Translations under genes and position numbers: made by a program
Shown here: piece after piece, positions 1 through 57,488 of the stretch
Position numbering within the stretch: the first letter of the stretch is position 1
Layout: each line of letters opens with the position of its first letter
NCBI GenBank assembly: GCA_016432365.1
Contig: CP066686.1
Location: 355 to 64,354, forward strand
Length of the DNA: 64,000 nucleotides
Source of the DNA: Candidatus Woesebacteria bacterium
Lineage (GTDB): Bacteria > Patescibacteriota > Microgenomatia > UBA8517
Direction: 5' to 3'
Notes under the pieces: generated by a model
The model's database searches: none
Told to the model about the DNA's origin: nothing
The model's input: the letters and a program-made list of their open reading frames with translations, nothing else

Positions 1-403
1 AGTTTACGACCCGAAGGCCTTCATCCTCCACGCGGCATTGCGACGTCAGACTTTCGTCCATTGCGTACGATTCCCTGTTGCTGCCATCCGTAGATGTAAG
101 GGCCGTGTCTCAGTCCCTTTCTGCCCGTTTCCCCTCTCAGGGCGGGTACCCGTCATAGGCTTGGTAGGCCATTACCCTACCAACTACCTGATGGGAGATA
201 GGCTCATCCATCGGCGCGCAGTGAAGCGCTTTTCCCTTGCGGGGTCATGCGGTATTAGCTCATCTTTCGATGAGGTATTCCACACCATTGGGGAGATTCC
301 TATCCATTACTCAGCCGTTCGCAACTCGTCCCTTGCGGGACTCGTTCTACTTGCATGCATAAGGCATGCCGCCAGCGTTAATCCTGGGCCAGGATCAAAC
401 CCT
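1..403 (-). rRNA. rrs: 16S ribosomal RNA, 5' ~400 nt; the gene continues beyond the left edge of the window
   Basis: The minus strand of 383-403 reads GAGGGTTTGATCCTGGCCCAG, matching the universal 16S 5' end AGAGTTTGATCMTGGCTCAG. The minus strand of ~330-382 reads AACGCTGGCGGCATGCCTTATGCATGCAAGT, matching the GAACGCTGGCGGC...CATGCAAGTCG block. There is no credible ORF (38..511 is spurious). The 338-region at 72-96 is diverged from ACTCCTACGGGAGGCAGCAG, as in many CPR lineages. Confidence 0.85.
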
Positions 404-890
404 CAAAAAGCGTCCTACATAGCCTTACGGCGACGTGGGACAATCCTGATTTCCCGATCACATACTGAATTCCAATACATTCATACAAATAATATGAAAG
501 CCCTTCCGTAGCCGTCCGAAGCTTTAAGCGTAGGATGGCGAAGGAGGGTCGAACTCAATACATATTCCAGCCTGCTAAGGACTGGTCGTCTCATCAATTT
601 CGCACAGAGATTGAGAGACAATTTTGATTAACCTAAAATCTTTGACTTTTAATGTGCCTAGTCAAAAGTAACAAAACTCAAGCTAAAACAAGGCAGAAAA
701 ACAATACTTAACTAAATAAACTGTGGCTTTTCTTTGTTTACAACTTGAGGTTTGGTACTTTTAATGAGCTTGCTCTGAAATCCTTCCGAAGCTCGTTAGA
801 GCGTAGGAAGATAAGGTTCTAAAATGGAGAGTTATCAATCCCTCGTAGCTTCATGCGGAGTGGGACGAGTCAACTTCATCGTGTAGGGGT

Positions 891-12292: not shown

Positions 12293-13105
12293 ATGAGAAA
12301 ACAAAATACATCCTGGCAAAAAGTTGCTCCTTGGTACAACAGAATAACCGACCAGGGCCGGGGGCATTATTACCATCAACACGTCGTTATCCCCGGTGTT
12401 TTGCGTCTTCTGGATCTTAATTCAAAAAACTTAAATCAAGAATCAAAAGTCTTAGACCTCGCTTGTGGGAACGGTGTATTGGCAAAATCACTTCCTAAAA
12501 GCGTTAAATATACAGGTATTGATATTGCCGAAGATTTGGTAAAAACTGCCAAAAATGAGGACAAAAATTACAATCACAGATATCTCGTTGGTGATGTAAC
12601 CAAACCCGAAGGACTTGCCCCTCGAAGCCTTGGCGAAGTGGGGTTCACCCATGCTACTATTATTCTCGCCCTCCAAAACATTTCCGACCCCAAATCCGTA
12701 ATAGAGAATGCCGCAAGACACTTAATTCCTTCGCCGGCCAAACCCTTGGCGGAGGCTGGTAAATTATTAATTGTCTTAAATCATCCGGCCTTTCGAATTC
12801 CCCGCCAATCTTCATGGGGAATAGATGAGGCAAGAAAGATTCAATATAGAAGAGTCGATAAATACATGTCCCCAATGGAAATACCGATTAACATGAACCC
12901 AAGCGATAAAAATAGCCAGGTGACAATGAGTTATCACTTCCCCCTAAGTGACTATTCCAAAATGCTAAAAGATGCAGGTTTTGTTATTAATTTAATTGAA
13001 GAATGGACAAGCGATAAAGAGTCCGAAGGACGCGCCCGCAGGATGGAAAATAGAAGTAGAGACGAGATCCCTCTTTTTATGACAATTCTGGCTACTAAGA
13101 AGTAG
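12293..13105 (+). CDS. Class I SAM-dependent methyltransferase
   Basis: VLDLACGNG (motif I) and acidic motif II (TGIDIAED). Start chosen at Met-7 of the raw ORF (12275). Confidence 0.65.
   Translation: MRKQNTSWQKVAPWYNRITDQGRGHYYHQHVVIPGVLRLLDLNSKNLNQESKVLDLACGNGVLAKSLPKSVKYTGIDIAEDLVKTAKNEDKNYNHRYLVGDVTKPEGLAPRSLGEVGFTHATIILALQNISDPKSVIENAARHLIPSPAKPLAEAGKLLIVLNHPAFRIPRQSSWGIDEARKIQYRRVDKYMSPMEIPINMNPSDKNSQVTMSYHFPLSDYSKMLKDAGFVINLIEEWTSDKESEGRARRMENRSRDEIPLFMTILATKK
12618..12644. repeat. Dispersed 27-nt GC-rich element, copy 1 (inside the methyltransferase CDS)
   Basis: cccctcgaagccttggcgaagtggggt. Confidence 0.6.
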
Positions 13106-37770: not shown

Positions 37771-38580
37771 CTATTTTAAGGCAGCATCTACGGTCGATTT
37801 CATATCTGTCCAGCTGTATGCTCCTGCATAACTGGTGGCGTTAATAAAAAATCCCGGGGTTCCACTTATCCCAATTGACCTGGCAATATCCGTCTCTTCA
37901 GTTAACCTGGAATCATACTTGCCGCTATCTAGACACTTCTTCATCTCAGCCGGATCTGTAGCACTTTTAAGAAAACTTGCAACCTCTTCCGATTTGGTCT
38001 TATCATTCTTTACAGTTGTATTCATGAAATCATACCCGGCATTTGTATAGAGTAGATCGTGGACTTCCCAAAATTTGCCGACATCTTGAGCACAATAAAG
38101 TGCCTTTGATCCCATTTCTCCGTTTCCGTGTCCAGGGGTATAAATCCAAACGTAAGAAGCTTTGCCGGAATCAACCAGCTTTCTCATTTCAGCAACCGGT
38201 GCAATATACTTACCTCCGTCTTTAACCAACTTGAACTGGCCTCCCATTTGATTATTTAATGCTGAATTAAGCCCTGTCGCGACGTGACAATATGGACAAG
38301 ATGGATCTGCAACTTCTACAAACAACACTTTCCTGTCTTTACCACCGAATTTTACAAGATTTTTATCAAAAAGACCTTTAATTGTGTCCAAACTCACAGC
38401 AGGTTGGTTGGGCTGACCTTCTGTGTTTGTTGCGGCTGTTGTGCCACCCTTTTCCAAATTGTTAACCTTTTGCCACAAAACACCAACCATAAACGCAAGA
38501 CCGATGCTGAGAACCACAAGTATCGGAGCTATCTTTTCAAAAATTCCTGGTCTTGGAGTTGCTTCTTCGTTTACTGACAT
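37771..38580 (-). CDS. DsbA-like thiol:disulfide oxidoreductase, membrane-anchored
   Basis: N-terminal TM helix, CPYCH active site and a thioredoxin-fold length. First gene of the pilus operon. Confidence 0.7.
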   Translation of the reverse strand: MSVNEEATPRPGIFEKIAPILVVLSIGLAFMVGVLWQKVNNLEKGGTTAATNTEGQPNQPAVSLDTIKGLFDKNLVKFGGKDRKVLFVEVADPSCPYCHVATGLNSALNNQMGGQFKLVKDGGKYIAPVAEMRKLVDSGKASYVWIYTPGHGNGEMGSKALYCAQDVGKFWEVHDLLYTNAGYDFMNTTVKNDKTKSEEVASFLKSATDPAEMKKCLDSGKYDSRLTEETDIARSIGISGTPGFFINATSYAGAYSWTDMKSTVDAALK

Positions 38581-38637
38581 TTGTACATTCTGCCCGAAAA
38601 ATTATTGAAAGTCAATGCCAATAATAGCTACTAGCAT

Positions 38638-39597
38638 CTAGCGACTAGTTCCTAGGTATTTTAACGCATCCATCGCGGCCATACATCCAAAACCCGCGGC
38701 AGTTATTGCCTGCTTGTAACGCGCATCGTGAACGTCCCCCGCAACAAAAATTCCCGGAACATTTGTTTTTGATCCTTCAGATAGCTTTATGAATCCACGT
38801 TCATCTGTTTCAACCACGTCTTTAAACACTGCGCTACCAGGTTTGTGTCCTATTGCTATAAATAGTCCGTCGATAGGAAGTTCTGAAACTTCATTAGTTT
38901 TATTATTTTTTAACTTTACACGCTCCAATTTTTCTTCTCCGCCCACCTCAGTTACTTCTGTATCCCAAACTATTTTAATTTTTGGATTGTCCTTCACTTC
39001 TTTCTGCATCGCGGCAGAGGCGCGGAATATATCGCGTCTATGAATTATTGTTACTTCCGAAGCATATTTTGTTAGAACAAGAGCCTCCTCCATTGCGCTA
39101 TCTCCCCCACCAACCACAGCAACCTTTTTACCTTTAAAAAACGGAGCATCACAAGGGGCGCACGAAGAAACTCCACGTCCAATTAATTTTTGAACCCCAG
39201 GAACATCAAGCCACAAAGTTTCGGCGCCGGTCGCAATAATAATACTGCGGGCTGAGTACTGTTGACTGTTTACTGTTAACTGAAACGGCTGCTTAGTTAC
39301 GTCAATTGAAGTGACGTTTTGTCCGACAAACTCTGCTCCAAATCTCTCAGCCTGAGCTCGCATCTCTCCTATTAATTTTGGTCCCAATATTCCTTGCGGG
39401 AAACCCGGGAAATTATCAACTTCCGTCGTCAGCATGAGCTGACCTCCCCAGACTTCTCCGCCAAGAATCAGAGTTGAAGCCGCACCGCGGGTTGTATAGA
39501 TCGCGGCGGTTAAACCGGAGGGGCCCGATCCAACAATCGCAACGTCCCATGGCCCTTTTGGATCTGACGGTTTGGATGAGAATATTTGTTGATCCAT
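38638..39597 (-). CDS. trxB: Thioredoxin-disulfide reductase
   Basis: GSGPSG FAD motif, CAPCD redox-active disulfide and GGGDSAMEEA NADPH motif. Confidence 0.85.
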   Translation of the reverse strand: MDQQIFSSKPSDPKGPWDVAIVGSGPSGLTAAIYTTRGAASTLILGGEVWGGQLMLTTEVDNFPGFPQGILGPKLIGEMRAQAERFGAEFVGQNVTSIDVTKQPFQLTVNSQQYSARSIIIATGAETLWLDVPGVQKLIGRGVSSCAPCDAPFFKGKKVAVVGGGDSAMEEALVLTKYASEVTIIHRRDIFRASAAMQKEVKDNPKIKIVWDTEVTEVGGEEKLERVKLKNNKTNEVSELPIDGLFIAIGHKPGSAVFKDVVETDERGFIKLSEGSKTNVPGIFVAGDVHDARYKQAITAAGFGCMAAMDALKYLGTSR

Positions 39598-39745
39598 TTT
39601 AATGAATGAAGTAAGACGTTTGAGATTTGAAGCTTGAAGACGAATTCTGAAGTACGAAAACCGAAGCCAGAAAAATCAGGCCTCAAAATTCGAACATCAC
39701 ACCTTCACTTCAAACTTCAAACCTCTGACTTCCAACTTCAAATAC

Positions 39746-39985
39746 TTAAACTGCTGGAGGTGTTTGCGGGGGCATTCCTGCTCCTGCGTCTCCCGTTCCT
39801 TCAGTTGGTGTAGGTGTCGGCATTACCGGAGCTTCTGGCTCTGGCATTACTGGCTCAACAGGAGCTGGTGTTCCCACCGGCATTGTTGGTTGTTCTACAA
39901 CTGGCGTTGCAGGTGCCTGAACAGGAGCGTTCGGGTCTGCCGCTGGAACTGTTGGACTAACCGGATTTTGTGCGTTTGGATCCAT
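39746..39985 (-). CDS. Proline/alanine-rich low-complexity protein (79 aa)
   Basis: ORF starting 3 nt after the trxA stop, with a GGTGG RBS-like sequence. The antisense ORF 39764..40048 is an artifact. Confidence 0.35.
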   Translation of the reverse strand: MDPNAQNPVSPTVPAADPNAPVQAPATPVVEQPTMPVGTPAPVEPVMPEPEAPVMPTPTPTEGTGDAGAGMPPQTPPAV

Positions 39986-39987
39986 AA

Positions 39988-40311
39988 TTATTCACCACCC
40001 TTCTTCATTAACTCTTCAAAACCTTGTTTTCCTGCAAAACCAACATGACGTCCTATTTCTTTTCCGTCTTTGAAAAGAACCGTCGTGGGGATAGACATTA
40101 TTCCATACTTTTGTGAATTGGCGGGATTGGCATCAACATCCAACTTCATTACCAACACCTTGTCTTTGTAAGCCTCCGAAAGCTCTTCTAAAATTGGAGC
40201 CGCCATCAAACAAGGCCCACACCACGTTGCCCAAAAATCAACTAGCACCGGAAGTTTATTCTTAAGAACCTGTTCTTCAAAATTTGCGTCAGTGATATTT
40301 TGCGATGCCAT
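39988..40311 (-). CDS. trxA: Thioredoxin
   Basis: WCGPC active site; 107 aa. Confidence 0.9.
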   Translation of the reverse strand: MASQNITDANFEEQVLKNKLPVLVDFWATWCGPCLMAAPILEELSEAYKDKVLVMKLDVDANPANSQKYGIMSIPTTVLFKDGKEIGRHVGFAGKQGFEELMKKGGE

Positions 40312-40414: not shown

Positions 40415-42508
40415 TTATACTTTAATTCCATTAAGTCTCAACGAATTTACTACAACTGAAATCGAAGAAAGAGCCATTGCTCCAGCCGCAATCATCGGAT
40501 TAAGTAATCCTATTGCGGCCACAGGAATCAAAATAACGTTATAACCAAAGGCCCAAAATAGGTTCTGTTTAATTACCCCCAACGTCGCACGACTTAAATT
40601 AAATGCCGTTAATACACTTCTGATATCTTTATTTAATAAAGTTACACCGGCAGATTCAATTGCCACGTCTGTTCCTGTTCCCATTGCAATTCCAACATCG
40701 GCCGCGGCCAATGCCGGCGCATCGTTTACCCCGTCTCCAACGAAGGCGACGTTTACAGCACGTCCGTCACTTCCCACTTTCAAATCCTTTACTTTATCTG
40801 CTTTATGGTGCGGCATTACTTCACTCATTATATTTTTAATGTTAGCTTTATCCGCGATATCTTTTGCGACACTCTTTTTATCCCCTGTAATCATCCAAAC
40901 ACCTATTCCCTTAGCTTCCAGTCCTTCGGTCACTTCGCGAACCCCATCTTTAATTTCATCGCCGACTTCAAAGGTCGCCAATATTTTTCCTCCGCTCGTA
41001 AGAGATATCGATCCAGCTTTCGATCTCCCCAAAAAGTATTTTTTATCATCAATCTCTCCTTCTATCCCAATTCCTTCAAGTGCCTTAAAGTGTTCCACCC
41101 TCTTCGTTTTTAGCTCTTCACTTTTCGCTTTGTCGACAATCGCTTTCGCGATCGGGTGTTCTGAATTTTGTTCCAAACTTGCTGCAATTTGGAGATATTT
41201 ATCTCCTACTTTATTAGTTAAAAACATTTCCCCCTTTGTTAGAGTCCCCGTTTTATCAAAAACGATTGCCTTAATCCTCCCAAGGGTCTCCAAACTTGCG
41301 GCATCTTTAATTAAAACGCCTTTCGCGGCTCCCTTGCCTGTTCCAACCATAATCGCAGTTGGGGTAGCAAGTCCCATGGCACACGGACAGGCTATTATGA
41401 GTACCGCGACAAGGTTTACAAAAGCACTAACTGGAGATCCAAAAATAAACCAGACAACAAAGGTCGCAACCGAAAGCATTAAAACGATCGGAACAAAATA
41501 AGAAGAAACCGTGTCTGCAAGACGTTGAATGGGGGCCCTACTCCCCTGCGCCTCGGAAACCATTTTTACAATTTGCGAAAGCATGGTATCTCGACCCACC
41601 TTTGACGCCTTGAAAATGAATGTTCCCGACTTGTTTATAGTGGCACCAATCACGTTGGCACCTACGGTTTTATCTACAGGGAGACTTTCTCCGGTAACCA
41701 TTGATTCGTCAATCGCACTTTCTCCTTCCAGGATAATTCCATCGACAGGAATTTTTTCTCCCGGGCGAACTCTGATTCTATCTCCCACCACCACCTCTTC
41801 TATTGGAATATCTATTTCCTTCCATGATTTACCATTAACCTGCCGGAGGACTCGGGCCGTCTTAGCTTGAAGTCCAAGGAGCTTCTTAATTGCATCATTT
41901 GTGTGTGATTTGGCCCTGGCTTCCAAAAACCTCCCCAAAAGTATGAGGGCTATGATAACAGTTGAAGTATCAAAATAGGTAGGACCTCCGAATACTATTG
42001 AATAAAGTGAGTATCCAAAAGCAGCTGTTGTACCAATGGCAATTAACGTGTCCATGCTCGCCGCACGGTTTTTAAGTCCCGACCATGTGGCCAGATAGAA
42101 TTCTTTACCGGCCCAAAATTGGACGGGAATAGCAAGAACAAGAAGAATCCAGTTGGGAAACATCACAAAACTTCCTACCATAACAACCGCCGACAATATC
42201 CCCGATACAATAACCTTTGTCTTTAATTTTTTGATTTCTTCTTTTTTAATTTCGTCCTTTTGCTCTTCGGCCGATTTGCCTTCCGAATTGTTTGTATCAG
42301 TAAACACCGCTTTATAACCGGCGTCGTAAACTGCTTGAGCCAAATCTTGATCGCGAACGTCATCCCCAACCTCAACAGTAGCTATTTCGCTTGCATAATT
42401 TACCATTGCGGAGGCAACACCGGGAGTTTTTCCGAGTTTTCGCTCGATTAACTTTGCACAACTTGCGCAATGCATACCTACGATTGGAAATGATTTTTTA
42501 ATGGTCAT
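40415..42508 (-). CDS. copA: Copper-translocating P1B-type ATPase
   Basis: N-terminal HMA (GMHCASCA), the CPC motif (ACPCAMG), [15 protein letters not shown] and HP. Start set at the Met (MTIKKSF) overlapping the stop of the upstream small ORF; the raw ORF extends to 42535. Confidence 0.85.
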
Positions 42509-42602
42509 GTTTATCCCCTGTCTCTTTTTTGCCACCGAAAAAGAACCAATAAATAAACCATATTAGTCCTACTCCGCCAATTGTAACCAAAATCTTATCC
42601 AT
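42498..42602 (-). CDS. Small (35 aa) single-TM peptide with a His/Asp-rich tail, translationally coupled to copA
   Basis: [34 protein letters not shown]. Its TAA overlaps the copA ATG (ATGACCATTAA) and it starts 5 nt after the csoR stop. Confidence 0.45.
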
Positions 42603-42606
42603 ATAA

Positions 42607-42882
42607 TTATTTCTTCTGTAAAACAGACATAACTTCTTCGATTGCCTCTTTACTATTTCCGCTTTTAATTGAAGCGGCAACACAGGTATTAAGATGGCTC
42701 TCCAAAATTACTTCGTCCACTTTTTTTAATGCAGCCTGAACTGCGATCGACTGATGGACAACATCTATACAATAGGCATCCCCGTCTACCATAGATATAA
42801 TCTTATCTAAATGCCCTCTGGCAATTTGAAGGCGATGCAAAATTTGTTTTTTGCCATTTGACATATCCGTTTTGTGTGTCAT
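42607..42882 (-). CDS. csoR: CsoR/RcnR-family metal-sensing repressor
   Basis: L.RLQIARGHLDKI..M......CIDVVHQSIAVQAAL matches the CsoR Cys-His-Cys sensor positions. Confidence 0.75.
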   Translation of the reverse strand: MTHKTDMSNGKKQILHRLQIARGHLDKIISMVDGDAYCIDVVHQSIAVQAALKKVDEVILESHLNTCVAASIKSGNSKEAIEEVMSVLQKK

Positions 42883-42892
42883 AATTCATTGT

Positions 42893-42913
42893 ATATCCCC
42901 CTGGGGGGGATTG
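42893..42913. promoter_or_regulatory. CsoR-type operator: GC-tract palindrome ATCCCCC-TGG-GGGGGAT
   Basis: A perfect 7-bp inverted repeat with C5/G5 tracts sits 11 nt upstream of the csoR ATG and abuts a TTGTCA -35-like hexamer for the divergent plus-strand operon. Confidence 0.55.
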
Positions 42914-42947
42914 TCAAACACCATTATTTATATAAATAATGTGCAGA

Positions 42948-42974
42948 CCCCTCGAAGCCTCGGCGAAGTGGGGT
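42948..42974. repeat. Dispersed 27-nt GC-rich element cccctcgaagcctcggcgaagtggggt, copy 2
   Basis: Matches 12618-12644 at 26 of 27 positions and 57251-57275 more loosely. Has the form ACCCC-N18-GGGGT. Confidence 0.6.
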
Positions 42975-42988
42975 CAATTCTACTATTC

Positions 42989-44005
42989 ATGAATCAATTC
43001 TGGTTAGCACTAATTACAGGTTTAACAACTGGCGGTCTGTCTTGTTTTGCCGTCCAAGGTGGGCTTTTGACATCTGCCCTAGCCCAGGAAGGAATTGGAA
43101 ACCAACCCGGCAAACAAAACATTAAATATTTGAAGGAAAAAAGCATTTTAATGTTTCTGGCAGCAAAACTCATCGCCTATACCCTCCTGGGTTTCCTTTT
43201 GGGCGCATTGGGGTCAGTTATTGTGATTTCTATAAAATTTCAAGCCTTTTTACAAATACTTGTTGGGTTTTACATGTTGGCCACAGCCGCAAGACTTTTG
43301 AATCTCCATCCCGTTTTTAAATATTTTGTCATTCAACCTCCAACATCACTTTTAAAATTGGTAAGAAAAAGTTCACAGGTCAAATCATTTTTTGCCCCAG
43401 CTCTGCTTGGATTTTTAACAATTCTTATCCCCTGTGGGGTAACACAAGCAATGATGCTTTTGGCAATTGCTTCCGGCGGTGCCATATGGGGAGCCGGAAT
43501 AATGTTTTTCTTTGTTTTAGGAACCAGCCCTGTATTTTTTCTTATTGGCCTCGCCGCAACAGAACTTCTTAAAAACAAATCATTCGCCATTGTTGCCGCT
43601 ATATTTATAACAATTCTGGGTATAACTTCAATTAACAGCGGGCAGATTATCAGAGGTTCAGCTCACACTTTGCAGAATTATTGGAAAGTTATATCCGGAT
43701 CGGATATCATTCAAGGGTCGGCATCGATAAAAGATGGCAAACAAGAAGTGACAATCGAAGTGACCAGCCGAGGCTACAAATCGAATACTAATACTTTAAA
43801 ACTTGGAGTGCCCGTAAAACTAACCCTTATAACAAACAATATTTTTAGTTGCGCAAGAGCATTCGTCATTCCCTCTCTGGATTATTCTAAAGTACTTCCC
43901 CAGACCGGGAAAACGGTGGTTGAATTTACACCAAAAACTCTGGGCCAGTTAACTTATACTTGCAGTATGGGAATGTATTCTGGTTCGTTTAACGTAGTAG
44001 AATGA
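42989..44005 (+). CDS. Polytopic membrane protein with a C-terminal cupredoxin-like domain (copper-handling candidate)
   Basis: Start at MNQFWLAL, since the raw ORF upstream reads through the operator and repeat. At least 6 TM helices, then a beta-rich C-domain with C...C.MGMY. Confidence 0.55.
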   Translation: MNQFWLALITGLTTGGLSCFAVQGGLLTSALAQEGIGNQPGKQNIKYLKEKSILMFLAAKLIAYTLLGFLLGALGSVIVISIKFQAFLQILVGFYMLATAARLLNLHPVFKYFVIQPPTSLLKLVRKSSQVKSFFAPALLGFLTILIPCGVTQAMMLLAIASGGAIWGAGIMFFFVLGTSPVFFLIGLAATELLKNKSFAIVAAIFITILGITSINSGQIIRGSAHTLQNYWKVISGSDIIQGSASIKDGKQEVTIEVTSRGYKSNTNTLKLGVPVKLTLITNNIFSCARAFVIPSLDYSKVLPQTGKTVVEFTPKTLGQLTYTCSMGMYSGSFNVVE

Positions 44006-44211
44006 CTAATCTAACAAATATGCCTAACAAAATCTATAAAATCACCGGTCTTGATTGCCCAAGCTGTGCGGGACTGGTCGAAATGGACCTTGAGGACGCC
44101 GGCATCAAAGCTACTTGTTCCTATGCGAAAGGTGTTTTAGAAGTAGAAGGCAAACACGACAAGAAAAAAGTTGATGAAGTAGTTAAAAAATCAGGCTATT
44201 CCGTTTCCTAA
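44002..44211 (+). CDS. copZ: Heavy-metal-associated (HMA) copper chaperone, CopZ-like
   Basis: ITGLDCPSCAG (GMxCxxC) in a ferredoxin-like ~65 aa protein; ATGA overlap with the upstream gene. Confidence 0.75.
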   Translation: MTNLTNMPNKIYKITGLDCPSCAGLVEMDLEDAGIKATCSYAKGVLEVEGKHDKKKVDEVVKKSGYSVS

Positions 44212-44279: not shown

Positions 44280-44690
44280 ATGTGTCCCGTATGCACAGTC
44301 ACTGTTGTTGCCGGCCTTGGAATCTCAAGACTTCTTGGGATTGATGACCTATTAACCTCGATTTGGATCGGCGGATTTATACTTTCATTTTCGTTTGTCA
44401 CTGTTAACTGGATCATTAAAAAATGGCCAAACTGGAATGCCAAAAAGTGGCAGTGGACAATTTTTGTTTCAATGTATATTTTAGCCTTGGCACCGCTTTA
44501 TAATGCCCCTACTATCACGAGAATTCTTTATGGAACGCTGGTCGGATCAGTATTTTTTTTAATCGGAGTATATGCAGATAAATTCCAGAGGAAAAAGTAT
44601 GATAAAATTTTCTTCCCGTTTCAGAAGGTTGCATTTCCTGTTTTAAGTCTTATACTTGCCTCACTTGTCTCATATTTTCTAATTAAATGA
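44280..44690 (+). CDS. Hypothetical membrane protein (136 aa)
   Basis: Four predicted TM helices. Confidence 0.5.
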   Translation: MCPVCTVTVVAGLGISRLLGIDDLLTSIWIGGFILSFSFVTVNWIIKKWPNWNAKKWQWTIFVSMYILALAPLYNAPTITRILYGTLVGSVFFLIGVYADKFQRKKYDKIFFPFQKVAFPVLSLILASLVSYFLIK

Positions 44691-45220
44691 ATGTAATTAA
44701 AACATACAAAGATTTGGTTGATAAGGTTAGTAGTTTCAAAATTGATCAGAATATTGATCTCTCTTCCGGAGAGGATCTGTCAATTGGGATCATGAACCTG
44801 ATTTCAATCGAAGAACATTTGTTTTTTACATACAACAAAACCAAATCTCCCAAATACCTGGAGTTACTAAATGAAATTCGGAAAATGAGGACAGAACTGA
44901 TGCGCGAAATCATTAAAGATTATGAAGGTGAAGTTTGGTGCATTAGCAAACATTTATTGGCAGCTTCAATGAGGATCATGGAAGTGGGAACAAAGGAATT
45001 AAAGAAGGGCGAGAACAAAAAAGCGCAAGTGCTTTTCCAAAAATCATATCAACTCTATTCCCTGTTCTGGGGCTTAAATTTATCTAAATTCCCTAAATCC
45101 CCCAGCCTTTCTGACAAACTCTCCTTTATCGACGAAAAAGGAAAATCAAAAGGAACAGAGTCTGTTTTCTCCAAACTTGGACAAGTAGTCCAAAAGGCCA
45201 TAGACTGTTGTAGAGAATAA
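44687..45220 (+). CDS. Hypothetical protein (177 aa)
   Basis: ORF overlapping its neighbours by 4 nt. Confidence 0.5.
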   Translation: MNVIKTYKDLVDKVSSFKIDQNIDLSSGEDLSIGIMNLISIEEHLFFTYNKTKSPKYLELLNEIRKMRTELMREIIKDYEGEVWCISKHLLAASMRIMEVGTKELKKGENKKAQVLFQKSYQLYSLFWGLNLSKFPKSPSLSDKLSFIDEKGKSKGTESVFSKLGQVVQKAIDCCRE

Positions 45221-45726
45221 TGACAACTTTCTATATCTTCCGTCATGGAAATACTATTGATTCCGACAGCCTACTGACCAAATTTTTTGGGCATAAGCAC
45301 GATTCTCACGATTTAGTAATTCTACCAAAAGCACTTCCAGCTTTAAAAAAAATCGGAGCCTTTTTGGAAAAAGTAGACACCGACGCCAATTTTTCTTCTC
45401 CTTACCTGCGTTGCCGTCAATCGACACAAATAGTCAGCCATATCGCCAACAAAAAATATACGGTTGACGAGAGGTTGCGCGAATATGAAAAAAATGGTGA
45501 AAAATTTTCGTCACTACGTAAAAGAGTCCGCTCTTTTTTAGACTATGTCGCCAAAAAAAATTATTCATCAATATCAATTTGCACACACGGAGGAATAATA
45601 GCAGCCATTAAACACCTGGCCACAGGAGGTAATTTCTATTTTTTTCAACTCTGGGATTTTCCCGCCCCCGGTAACCTGATTGTAATGAAGGACGGAGAAG
45701 TAAAAACAATCAATTTTAACAAGTAG
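45220..45726 (+). CDS. Histidine phosphatase superfamily protein (SixA/PGM-like)
   Basis: IFRHGNT (the RHG catalytic motif) at the N-terminus and a conserved His near the C-terminus (CTHGG). Confidence 0.6.
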   Translation: MTTFYIFRHGNTIDSDSLLTKFFGHKHDSHDLVILPKALPALKKIGAFLEKVDTDANFSSPYLRCRQSTQIVSHIANKKYTVDERLREYEKNGEKFSSLRKRVRSFLDYVAKKNYSSISICTHGGIIAAIKHLATGGNFYFFQLWDFPAPGNLIVMKDGEVKTINFNK

Positions 45727-49109: not shown

Positions 49110-49216
49110 ATCAGTAGATATACCAAATTTCTTAATTTGCTATTTTTTGATTTTAACACAAAACATCCCCGGTCTCCCGAGGATGTTTCTTTTAAATTCT
49201 GGATCCAGAATTTAAA

Positions 49217-50031: not shown

Positions 50032-51417
50032 TCAAATATATTGCAGAATTGTTCTGACAGTAAAATACCCAAAAAACAAAAACGAAAAAATCATAACTAA
50101 AATTCTTGGCAGTGACGTTCGTACCTCCCTCTCCAGACTTGTTAGGTTTAGATACAAGGTAGCGCCAATGTGAATAAACATCGCCCCTGCATTAATCACC
50201 GCTTCAAGAGTTAGAAGCAAAAAAGGCTCCCTGAAACTCGTTAGAAAAATTAAAATTCCAAAAGCTATCTGCGCCCACAGAAACGAGTAATAAATCGCAG
50301 GAAGTTTCCTTGTTTCCCATTTGTGTTTGTTCAAGATCAAAAGATTTTCAGACATAATCCTGCTGGTTGCGTCCATCACAGTCATTTGGGTTGAAAACAA
50401 CATTATTCCTCCAATTATGAGAAATAGCATCCCGACTAGTGGGATAGATGACCGGGCGATTGAGGCAGCTTCGTAAATAATAAAATCAAAGCCCGATCCT
50501 GGAGTAATGCTTCCAAAAACTGTCGAATAAGAAAGGAGGGCCAATAGACTTATTGTGAACGCTCCGGTTGCCAAAAAAACCACAAAGTGTTCCTTATTAA
50601 TTAAATCCCACCATCTTTCAAATTTTCTCAGGTTATCTTTACTCATTTCAAATCTGGTTCCCTCCAGTTTGATGTTTTCCACCTCTCCGGTAAGGATACT
50701 TGTGATGCGCCCCCCAAACTTTCCCATACCATACCCCTTTTCTTTTATATAAAAAGATTGTGCCAAGTTGAGATTCCCTCCCGCTCCGGAAAAGGCAAAT
50801 GCGGCCAAAAATGAAGCAATAGGAATACCCGCGGGTAAAAAATTATACCCTTCTCCAATACCAACTACCCCCCTGAACAAACTGGCCCAATCGTTCGTCC
50901 CTGTCAAATAAGCAGTCAGAATAAAAATTGCAGGCACTCCAAGGCCAATAAGTATTATTGAAAACCTTTCCATTGTTTTGTATAAGACCGGACCCAAAGT
51001 CAGAATTAAACCCATTAAAATCAACATTCCAATTGCAATAAAATGTGTTTGAGTTATCCCAAATGCAGCCCCGATCATTTTTGCCGATACTGCTGCAATT
51101 CCTGGCCACACAAACCCAGCGAGGGTGGAAAAAATAAACCAAATTGGGGCATATTTGAACTTCCTGGTAAATCCTACAAAAATACTTTCACCGCGGACTA
51201 AAGAATACCTTTCTATTTCCATGTTGATAAAGAATTGGAGTGTGATTCCAAGTATTGCGGCCCAAATTATTCCCATTCCGAAGTTTGCAGTAAGATAAGG
51301 CCAAAGAATCAGCTCTCCACTACCCAATCCAAGTCCTAAAAGAATGAAGGATGGGCCAAGAAGTTTTTTGAAAGCAGGTGCCTCGGGCATCTCGTTAATT
51401 TCGTGTTCGGAAAGCAT
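50032..51417 (-). CDS. Polytopic transporter, Nramp-like divalent metal transporter candidate
   Basis: About 11-12 TM helices. The N-terminal GPSFILLGLGLGSGELILWP loosely resembles Nramp TM1. The family call is tentative. Confidence 0.4.
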   Translation of the reverse strand: MLSEHEINEMPEAPAFKKLLGPSFILLGLGLGSGELILWPYLTANFGMGIIWAAILGITLQFFINMEIERYSLVRGESIFVGFTRKFKYAPIWFIFSTLAGFVWPGIAAVSAKMIGAAFGITQTHFIAIGMLILMGLILTLGPVLYKTMERFSIILIGLGVPAIFILTAYLTGTNDWASLFRGVVGIGEGYNFLPAGIPIASFLAAFAFSGAGGNLNLAQSFYIKEKGYGMGKFGGRITSILTGEVENIKLEGTRFEMSKDNLRKFERWWDLINKEHFVVFLATGAFTISLLALLSYSTVFGSITPGSGFDFIIYEAASIARSSIPLVGMLFLIIGGIMLFSTQMTVMDATSRIMSENLLILNKHKWETRKLPAIYYSFLWAQIAFGILIFLTSFREPFLLLTLEAVINAGAMFIHIGATLYLNLTSLEREVRTSLPRILVMIFSFLFFGYFTVRTILQYI

Positions 51418-56459: not shown

Positions 56460-57488
56460 TTACCCCCCAAGATCTATCTTTTCCAGTTTTGAAACTCCCT
56501 CCAAAAAATGTTCGTCCGCGGTTGTAATAATTGTCTGTTGATTCTTTGCCAGCTCCATTACAACGTCCCTGTGCTCGTGGTCCAGTTCAGAAAAAATGTC
56601 GTCAAGTAACAGGGTCGGTTTCTCACCTGTCACATTTTCAATAAAAGACAACTCAGCCAACTTCAACCACAAAACTCCCATTCTTTGTTCCCCTCTGGAA
56701 CCGTAGGCAGATAATTCCCTTTCTTTGTCAAAAAAAATAAAATCATCACGGTGGGGACCAACCAAAGTTGTAGCAGACGCAACTTCCTCCTCGGCATATT
56801 GTTCGAGTCTGCCCTCACTTATAATTGATTTGTCGTACTCCAAACGAATTTTGTTTAAATTGTTTACAAATATAATGAATTCCGTTCTCTTTTTAGTAAT
56901 ATAATCTCCATTCTTAATTAACAACTGGTTCCAGAAAAGAAGTTGGCTACGTGAGACTCCTTCTTCACGGATTCGCCACAAAAGTTTATTTCGTTGTCTT
57001 AATCCCTTTTCGTAAGAAAGGATGGAGCGACGATACTCACGATCAGTCTGCGACAAAACATTGTCCAAAAATTTTCTACGGATTGATGGAGATTCCGTCA
57101 CCAGGTCCATATCCCATGGCCCAAAAAGGACAGTTTTAAAATTTCCCGCGAAATCGACCATGCGGCGCGGGACCCCGTTTACCAAGAGTCTTTTCTTCGG
57201 CCACGCATTTCGACCCTCCGTAATCATAACCCCTAAAGATAGTGGGTCGTCCCTCAAAGCTTCAGCGAAGTGGGATCCTGTTATTTTGGCAATCTCCTGA
57301 CCATAGTTGATCATTTCCGATTCAGTTCGTGCTTTAAAACTTTTTCCTGTAGAAAGTAAAAACAACGCCTCAAGAATGTTTGTTTTCCCGGAAGCGTTTG
57401 GACCCACAATCGCTGTGATTCCACCGGAAAATTCCAGATACTTAGATTTGTAATTTCTGAAATTAGAAAGTTTTATACTGAATACCAT
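56460..57488 (-). CDS. recF: DNA replication and repair protein RecF
   Basis: VGPNASGKTNILEA (Walker A), an SMC-like signature and LLLDDIFSELD (Walker B/D-loop). Confidence 0.85.
   Translation of the reverse strand: MVFSIKLSNFRNYKSKYLEFSGGITAIVGPNASGKTNILEALFLLSTGKSFKARTESEMINYGQEIAKITGSHFAEALRDDPLSLGVMITEGRNAWPKKRLLVNGVPRRMVDFAGNFKTVLFGPWDMDLVTESPSIRRKFLDNVLSQTDREYRRSILSYEKGLRQRNKLLWRIREEGVSRSQLLFWNQLLIKNGDYITKKRTEFIIFVNNLNKIRLEYDKSIISEGRLEQYAEEEVASATTLVGPHRDDFIFFDKERELSAYGSRGEQRMGVLWLKLAELSFIENVTGEKPTLLLDDIFSELDHEHRDVVMELAKNQQTIITTADEHFLEGVSKLEKIDLGG
57251..57275. repeat. Dispersed GC-rich element, degenerate copy 3 (inside recF)
   Basis: ccctcaaagcttcagcgaagtggga matches about 21 of 25 positions. 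Confidence 0.35.

Follow-up and report, generated by a model that had tools for sequence, protein, structure and literature searches.

The window analysed here, a stretch of 64,000 nucleotides (nt) with a GC content of about 40% from Candidatus Woesebacteria (Microgenomates, Candidate Phyla Radiation (CPR)), carries a copper locus with two divergent arms. On the minus strand lie csoR, a gene for a membrane peptide of 34 amino acids (aa), and copA; on the plus strand lie a gene for a membrane protein with a cupredoxin-like domain (the membrane-cupredoxin gene) and copZ (Table 1). Between the two arms is a perfect 7+3+7 inverted repeat, ATCCCCCTGGGGGGGAT, at 42895-42911. An earlier note on this DNA had described this palindrome; it is real, with a single exact match in the window, and 12 nt (42883-42894), not 11, separate it from the csoR start codon at 42882. 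We consider it probable, at roughly 0.8, that the adjacent, Cu(I)-sensing CsoR uses the palindrome as its operator and that this one site can shut both back-to-back copper-export operons.

All sequence-level tests identify the csoR product as a Cu(I)-sensing CsoR, and a response to copper would be expected of it. Its four-helix-bundle domain (Trns_repr_metal, PF02583) scored 83.7 bits over residues 11-90, against a cut-off of 22.8. Residues C38, H63 and C67, together with Y37 and E83, were invariant among 40 homologues. In a gapless alignment of 80 residues (E = 7.5e-19) they correspond to Cys36, His61, Cys65, Tyr35 and Glu81 of Mycobacterium tuberculosis CsoR (PDB 2HH7). The x-C-H-C ligand fingerprint, Cys36, His61 and Cys65 in the M. 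tuberculosis numbering, is present, and so is the second-shell Tyr/Glu pair that couples Cu(I) binding to DNA release in CsoR. The gene is linked in the genome to those for a copper efflux ATPase and a chaperone: CopA scored 601.8 bits with TIGR01511 (ATPase-IB1_Cu, cut-off 397), and copZ encodes an HMA domain.

The main support for the palindrome as a candidate operator is comparative and does not come from the statistics of the window. Inverted repeats with 7-nt arms are not rare by themselves, and several lie within 500 nt. Three copies of CCCCC-N3-GGGGG with at most one mismatch were found in the window where shuffles gave 1.1, weakly above chance. The skeleton ATCCC-N7-GGGAT, derived from the clade, was found twice where 0.04 copies were expected.

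For the comparison we collected 80 loci with a CsoR profile and nine by exact-protein look-up, and removed duplicates on the same contig, which left 86 Microgenomates loci with a CsoR identity of 48-84%. A loose pattern (three or more C, then three or more G, in a core of 10-15 nt at most 200 nt upstream of csoR) detected a site in 81 of the 86, and in 74 of them the core was exactly 13 nt long. The stricter pattern AT-C3-8...G3-8-AT with a 13-nt core was found in 76 loci within the same distance. Under this rule there were 76 sites in 19.7 kb of csoR-upstream DNA and 41 in the other 473 kb of these loci, an enrichment of about 45-fold.

The AT flanks were nearly invariant although the pattern did not impose them (A in 74 and T in 75 of the 76 sites on one side, A in 76 and T in 69 on the other). 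An ATC-N11-GAT dyad was present in 74-76 of the 76 sites. The clade motif can be written as tATAT, a 13-nt core of a C-tract and a G-tract, and ATAta, with the consensus TATAT-CCCCCCTGGGGGG-ATATA (also given as TATATCCCCCCTGGGGGGATATA). The C and G runs differed in length in 63 of the 76 sites, and the core was fully self-complementary in only 12. What stayed constant was the 13-nt length, the polarity with C on the left and G on the right, and the AT flanks. Unequal runs within a constant frame suggest selection on a protein-binding site with read-out of G-tract shape (PMC3902906), not on a hairpin.

A symmetrised weight matrix of the motif placed a site upstream of csoR in 83 of the 86 loci. 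With this matrix the window palindrome scored 30.8-32.5 bits, more than the median training site, and no other site in the window reached 10 bits. Two weaker sites were considered as operators and attributed to chance: ATCCCGACTAGTGGGAT at 50429-50445 (8.5 bits, below every training site), deep in the gene for a 461-aa multi-pass membrane protein, and a site at 43424 (7.3 bits) within the membrane-cupredoxin gene. Unrelated, CPR-rich contigs totalling 660 kb gave five hits of at least 14 bits. The single strong one among them (L096:10499, 29.5 bits) lies 8 nt from a csoR homologue. With the motif upstream of csoR in 83 of 86 loci and the ligand set present in the protein, the earlier assignment of the palindrome as the CsoR operator of a divergent copper locus is very probably right.

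Table 1. Features of the copper locus and copies of the hairpin repeat in the window. TSS, transcription start site; scan scores are matches to the promoter consensus.
Feature	Coordinates	Strand	Remarks
copA, Cu(I)-exporting P1B-type ATPase	40415..42508	-	open frame extends to GTG 42535
34-aa membrane peptide	42498..42602	-	between csoR and copA; 11-nt overlap with copA start
csoR	42607..42882	-	91 aa, or 85 aa if start is ATG 42864; PF02583
P_div1 -35, TTGACA	42858..42863	+	overlaps csoR codons ATG-TCA-A (Met7-Ser8); scan 11/12
P_div1 extended -10, TGt-CATAAT	42877..42885	+	16 nt after -35; predicted TSS ~42892
P_csoR -10, TACAAT	42888..42893	-	18-nt spacer; predicted TSS ~42880-42883
Core palindrome ATCCCCC-TGG-GGGGGAT, predicted CsoR operator	42895..42911		motif footprint 23 bp, 42892-42914
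P_div2, candidate of the earlier note	42911..42940	+	TTGTCA 42911-16, 18-nt spacer, AATAAT 42935-40; scan 10/12
P_csoR -35, TTGACA	42912..42917	-	abuts palindrome; plus strand TTGTCA 42911-42916; scan 11/12
Perfect 20-bp AT-rich palindrome CATTATTTAT/ATAAATAATG	42922..42941		contains P_div2 -10
Hairpin GACCCC-N18-GGGGTC	42946..42975	+	cop-leader copy of CTTG-tagged repeat
Membrane protein, DsbD_2 transmembrane region and C-terminal cupredoxin-like domain	42989..44005	+	divergent; PF13386 89.6 bits, PF13473 35.7 bits
CopZ-like HMA metallochaperone, CPSC motif	44002..44211	+	PF00403 27.8 bits
Second window copy of hairpin repeat	12616..12645	+	in class I S-adenosylmethionine (SAM)-methyltransferase gene; protein APRSLGEVG; 26/27 bases as in cop copy
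Third window copy of hairpin repeat	57248..57277	+	antisense within recF

The position of the palindrome relative to promoter hexamers fits a repressor site. It fills the 18-nt spacer between TTGACA and TACAAT on the minus strand, so that the predicted operator lies within csoR's own promoter (P_csoR). The earlier note had read the abutting hexamer as the -35 of the opposing promoter; it is best read as the minus-strand TTGACA, the -35 of csoR itself. The arrangement TTGACA-AT-operator was kept in L081, L082, L087-L089, L002, L005, L009, L013, L016, L017 and L028, type A loci among them. The five closest aligned loci (L081, L082 and L087-L089) have TTGACA-(A)T-operator-AT and then a hexamer reading TAnAAT or TATTAT. 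The variants of this hexamer in the relatives (TAAAAT, TATAAT, TAGAAT and TATTAT) follow the substitution pattern expected of a -10 element. In nearly every locus the operator centre was at -22/-20, 0/+2 or +7/+9 relative to the predicted TSS on the csoR strand, and all three position classes overlap the core promoter as predicted from the consensus. In the window the predicted TSS falls at or beside the ATG at 42882, so the csoR mRNA may be leaderless.

For the plus-strand arm, the best candidate promoter (P_div1) lies on the csoR side of the operator. Relative to its predicted TSS, the operator occupies about +4 to +20, and its centre falls at +11 both in the window and in L081, L082, L087, L088 and L089. 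P_div1 was kept in all five of the closest aligned loci. A second subclade of eight loci has TTGCAT-16-TAnnnT with the same geometry, although the spacers are unrelated and the stretch lies in the csoR 5′ leader. The geometry of the plus-strand promoter was thus kept in 6 + 8 loci. In relatives no more than 15-29 nt lie between the operator centre and the membrane-gene ATG, and the start codons of the two genes are about 30-50 nt apart. This leaves no room for a promoter on that side, and the operator must therefore lie in the leader of the membrane gene. P_csoR and P_div1 stand face to face, with their -10 boxes a few bases apart and the operator common to both. The positions in the P_csoR spacer and at +4 to +20 of P_div1 make a single site controlling both arms, as the earlier note had suggested, plausible.

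When the window was compared with L081, L087, L088 and L089, a 67-nt block (about 42918-42988) was seen between the -35 and the membrane-gene ATG. This block is absent from the five closest aligned loci. It holds an AT-rich palindrome and a hairpin (42922-42941 and 42946-42975 in Table 1), both of which are specific to the block of this genome and outside the conserved switch. The AT-rich palindrome was absent from all related loci. Perfect 20-bp palindromes are rare, with two in the window where 0.1 were expected. The other, AAATTCTGGA/TCCAGAATTT, is at 49194-49213 in the intergenic gap that separates two minus-strand genes; a hairpin, ACATCC...GGATGT (49163-49187), lies beside it.

The following scheme would connect these elements. 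Without copper, CsoR would bind the 13-bp core of C-tract and G-tract and its AT flanks, probably as one or two tetramers by analogy with the studied CsoRs. The bound protein would fill the 18-nt spacer between the -35 (42917-42912) and the -10 (42893-42888) of the csoR-peptide-copA promoter, and would also cover about +4 to +20 of P_div1, which would drive the membrane-cupredoxin/copZ operon. RNA polymerase should then be blocked at both promoters. Binding of Cu(I) to Cys38, His63 and Cys67 would release CsoR and allow expression of both arms. We infer the binding, the TSSs, the direction of regulation and the copper response in this scheme; what it builds on is the observed motif and its conservation, the hexamer positions, the ligand residues and the gene content.

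Several points weigh against the palindrome as the operator of both arms. The promoters are matches to a consensus in an organism without mapped promoters. Because csoR codons and the start codon overlap the -35 and -10 of P_div1, the conservation of these hexamers may in part be due to coding constraint. Against coding constraint as the sole cause stands the second subclade, with its unrelated spacers in the csoR leader. P_div2 is possibly an extra promoter in this genome, created by the 67-nt block, which bound CsoR might repress less well. The loci were picked by csoR homology and there is a single reciprocal case, so the link between motif and csoR was tested mainly one way. Finally, the TAC/GTA dyad that is essential for binding by Streptomyces lividans CsoR is absent.

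Among the alternatives, the one proposed in the earlier note concerns the plus-strand promoter. The plus arm would be transcribed from P_div2, with a predicted TSS at about 42947 and the operator centre at -44; CsoR would sit just upstream of its -35 and touch it, and the hairpin would be the 5′ end of the mRNA. Both TTGTCA and TATAAATAAT (42931-42940) are indeed present, the sequence TTGWCAA can be read as a -35 both ways, and the consensus scan gave 10 of 12 matches. At least 12 type B loci have a divergent promoter of the same geometry, TTGACA-17-TATCCT with the operator centre at -43. The P_div2 -10, however, lies within the 67-nt block that L081, L082 and L087-L089 lack. In these loci the membrane-gene ATG comes 2-11 nt after the hexamer, and TTGACA-16-CATAAT is kept on the far side of the operator instead. 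The -35 also matches at only five of six positions, and the -10 has no T at its first position. P_div2 as the conserved promoter of the plus arm thus does not hold, and we regard it as unlikely that this arm is expressed in this way.

Three further readings deny the palindrome, or a second element, the part given to it here. The palindrome could act as an RNA or DNA hairpin, that is, as a leader stem-loop, an attenuator or a stabiliser of the plus-arm mRNA, because the leader of the P_div1 transcript could fold into a G-C-rich stem of 7 bp with a loop of 3 nt. The unequal runs, the few complementary cores and the constant length, polarity and flanks described above speak against this, as does the placement of the site, which is at differing transcript positions, or outside the csoR transcript, from locus to locus. 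No Rfam family matched at the palindrome or at the downstream hairpin, either in a permissive search of 42400-43400 or at gathering thresholds over the whole window. We judge a hairpin function very improbable. Equally little can be said for another regulator, such as a MerR/CueR-type activator: the dyad does stand in a -35/-10 spacer as MerR-type sites do, but this spacer is 18 nt long and not the typical 19-20 nt, the motif is at +2 or +9 in most other loci, and it tracks csoR. Moreover, no MerR-family gene was found with Pfam among ten neighbouring genes or with NCBIfam among the seven genes of the cop locus. We would be surprised to find such a regulator here. The earlier note had also offered ACCCC-N18-GGGGT, which it placed slightly wrongly, as a second, lower-affinity CsoR site. 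The element exists (42947-42974, 28 nt, extending to the hairpin GACCCC/GGGGTC in Table 1), and its inverted C and G tracts are near the operator. It fits neither the 13-nt core nor the AT flanks of the clade motif, and no window hit of at least 10 bits was obtained beyond the main site. It is absent from the five closest aligned cop loci, and its 23-27-mer recurs in the methyltransferase gene, in recF and in at least 120 unrelated metagenome contigs. There is hardly any room for it as a CsoR site.

The predicted CsoR operator can be compared with those of known systems. CsoR operators are pseudo-palindromes of G/C-tracts that overlap -35/-10 elements (PMC3902906, PMC10318464). The closest solved relative of the window protein is M. 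tuberculosis CsoR, which has the same Cys/His/Cys ligands, Tyr/Glu second shell and RLxxxRGHL helix motif. Its operator, GTAGCCCACCCCCAGTGGGGTGGATAC, is likewise a C-tract/G-tract pseudo-palindrome and overlaps the -35/-10 of the promoter of the autoregulated csoR-copper ATPase operon (PMC10318464). The M. tuberculosis site spans about 28 bp, with GTA...TAC as its outer dyad, whereas the site here is more compact (17-23 bp) and has ATC-N11-GAT. A further difference is the divergent operon that the site here faces.

Type 2 CsoR operators, known from S. lividans, Bacillus subtilis, Staphylococcus aureus and Listeria monocytogenes, have the form ATATACCCCTNAGGGGTATAT with a TAC-N9-GTA dyad, and mutation of TAC/GTA abolishes binding by S. 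lividans CsoR (PMC3902906). They resemble the site here in the AT-rich inverted flanks around C and G tracts, the 2-fold symmetry and the location at cop/csoR promoters (PMC3902906). In the window these features appear as ATATCCCCC-T-GGGGGGGAT, with inverted C and G tracts of at least four bases each and AT-rich inverted flanks. The dyad differs: TAC-N9-GTA is not in the window site, which has ATC-N11-GAT around a 13-nt core, whereas the G/C core of type 2 sites is 11 nt. The "textbook" operator "of exactly this kind" of the earlier note was thus an overstatement (PMC3902906). The proteins differ in parallel. The N-terminal helix reads RLQIARGHL here, RLKTVRGHL in M. tuberculosis and RLLSAKGHL in Thermus, unlike RLKRIEGQ and RLRRIEGQ in the Geobacillus and Streptomyces structures; that is, RLQIARGH here stands against RLxR(I/L)EGQ in type 2 CsoRs. 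The ATC/GAT dyad would then go with the M. tuberculosis/Thermus-like, not the Bacillus/Streptomyces-like, N-terminal DNA-contact motif. In the literature we found nothing on CsoR operators in Patescibacteria.

The layout also recalls merR/merT of Tn21/Tn501, where overlapping divergent promoters share one dyad that governs the regulator gene and the resistance operon. As in that system, one dyad in a short intergenic region would here serve a regulator gene and a divergent resistance operon. MerR is an activator/repressor that distorts the DNA in a 19-bp spacer; here, in contrast, a CsoR-type repressor would act by simple occlusion.

On its sequence, the hairpin at 42946-42975 is a copy of a dispersed repeat that landed in the cop leader, and not a CsoR site. 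The pattern ACCCC-N(4-24)-GGGGT is expected 0.74 times per window, while the inner 23-mer of the hairpin occurs three times where 0.00 copies are expected (Table 1). A search with the 30-mer and up to three mismatches detected one copy; the outer stem differs among copies, and blastn-short and the inner 23-mer gave all three. In the recF copy the stem has changed from CCCC/GGGG to TCCC/GGGA with pairing retained. A terminator function for the cop copy was rejected because no U-tract follows the hairpin on the plus strand and a terminator scan found none there.

A degenerate 24-mer of the repeat was found in at least 120 metagenome contigs (L091-L210) with unrelated flanks, and in no viral contig. 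The consensus is about 30 nt long, cTTGC-CCCTCGAAGC-YTYR-GCGAAGTGGGG. The 5′ flank is conserved as C-T-T-G (78, 75, 90 and 92 of 115 copies, respectively), and the 3′ flank is not; the cop copy has TGCAGA at the position of this tag. The outermost pair covaries (C-G in 75, T-A in 25, A-T in 3 and G-C in 1 of 115 copies), and the loop appears as CUUG, UUUA, UUCA, CUCG or UUCG. In the predicted fold, a short G-C stem leads through a GAA/GAA internal loop to two G-C pairs and a tetraloop. Three weak, diverged look-alikes were seen upstream of the 16S rRNA gene, whose 5′ part (1-410, minus strand) runs off the start of the window: 410-441 (nhmmer E = 1.6), 517-550 (E = 6.6) and 837-866 (E = 0.13).

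Most copies are in long open frames. An open frame of at least 120 codons spanned 65 of 95 copies (68%), and all six frames were used. The tagged strand was more often the C-rich one (48:26, p = 0.014), a bias that would be compatible with mobilisation by way of single-stranded DNA. The site of the methyltransferase copy is six residues longer than in most homologues, and other inserts occupy this loop in several of them. In RecF the segment encoded by the repeat aligns without a gap to solved RecF structures, so an insertion cannot be shown there.

The same methyltransferase gene has another insert, SPAKPLAE. Its eight residues are encoded by a different 24-nt stretch resembling a G-C hairpin (CCTTCGCC...GGCGGAGG, at 12727-12760); it is missing in 20 of 20 aligned homologues and unique to this genome. 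Repeat copies in L104, L195 and L197 are flanked by hairpins that resemble this one but are not identical to it.

Repetitive extragenic palindromic (REP) elements are palindromes tagged with GTAG or CGTC (PMC3733652). They and the Rickettsia palindromic elements share with the hairpin repeat a short imperfect palindrome, an asymmetric 5′ tag, many dispersed copies and unrelated flanks. Rickettsia palindromic elements are also found within coding genes without breaking the frame, although they measure 100-150 nt as against about 30 nt here. The tag here is CTTG and not GTAG or CGTC, and with 68% of its copies in long open frames the repeat is not extragenic, unlike REP. No Y1 (IS200/REP-associated tyrosine transposase-like) transposase was detected by tblastn with the Woesebacteria Y1_Tnp of L212 in contigs L091-L210 or in the window, which covers about 6% of the genome. 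We found no description of this repeat or its core in the literature, nor of in-frame palindromic elements in CPR. As a tentative proposal, the copies may represent an undescribed family of 5′-CTTG G-C hairpin repeats of about 30 nt that has spread through Patescibacteria, mostly into coding genes in any frame as small loop insertions, and the copy in the cop leader may have rewired its promoter.

In the 76 loci tabulated, copA was at most 900 nt downstream of the operator in 48, the membrane-cupredoxin gene was divergent from csoR in 35, and the 34-aa peptide occupied the same position in 19 (tblastn). This peptide has a single helix and a His-rich tail, and its only family match, SA1362, was below threshold. 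The copA product has HMA, E1-E2_ATPase and Hydrolase domains, and a CPC motif was seen in its translation. The start of csoR is ambiguous: the first in-frame ATG is at 42882, but most homologues are annotated from the ATG of MSN (42864), six codons downstream, and the DNA of this second ATG coincides with the predicted -35 of P_div1, which faces csoR.

On the plus strand, copZ is followed by three genes (44280-45726) whose order is kept in the relatives L082 and L083/L211; they may belong to the divergent copper operon. They encode a 136-aa membrane protein, a 177-aa protein ending in CC and a His_Phos_1-like phosphatase. The 136-aa protein starts with MCPVC, a possible metal-binding CxxC; neither it nor the 177-aa protein matched a Pfam or NCBIfam family. 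On the minus strand, genes for a thioredoxin, a thioredoxin-reductase-like protein and a DsbA-like protein (37771-40311) are directly downstream of copA. A thioredoxin and a reductase follow copA in L081 too, and this shared order suggests a thiol-redox module linked to copA.

In a related Woesebacteria strain, an IS200-like Y1 transposase gene lies beside the cop locus (L212, 6113-10131, and the same region in L213). It has hairpin ends (…CCAGCGTAAGCTGG…) and is followed by Bro-N, RNase_H_2 and PDDEXK genes. This stretch may be a small mobile island; the window does not have it.

The biology of the locus is standard, an ordinary copper switch with derepression of copA and copZ by Cu(I) through CsoR; the switch is well supported and has a clade-specific box. 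Hardly any regulatory sites are known from CPR/Patescibacteria, since very few members of the group have been brought into culture. Comparing about 85 genomes allowed us to read a repressor, its probable operator motif and the promoter hexamers directly. The result is a usable CsoR-box model for Microgenomates (tATAT, a 13-nt C/G core and ATAta) and evidence for sigma-70-like TTGACA/TAnnnT promoters in this group. It also provides an example of two face-to-face promoters that share one operator, with as little as 30-50 nt between the genes. Less expected was the hairpin repeat, which colonises coding sequence and could matter more for the evolution of CPR genomes and for the odd insertions in their proteins.

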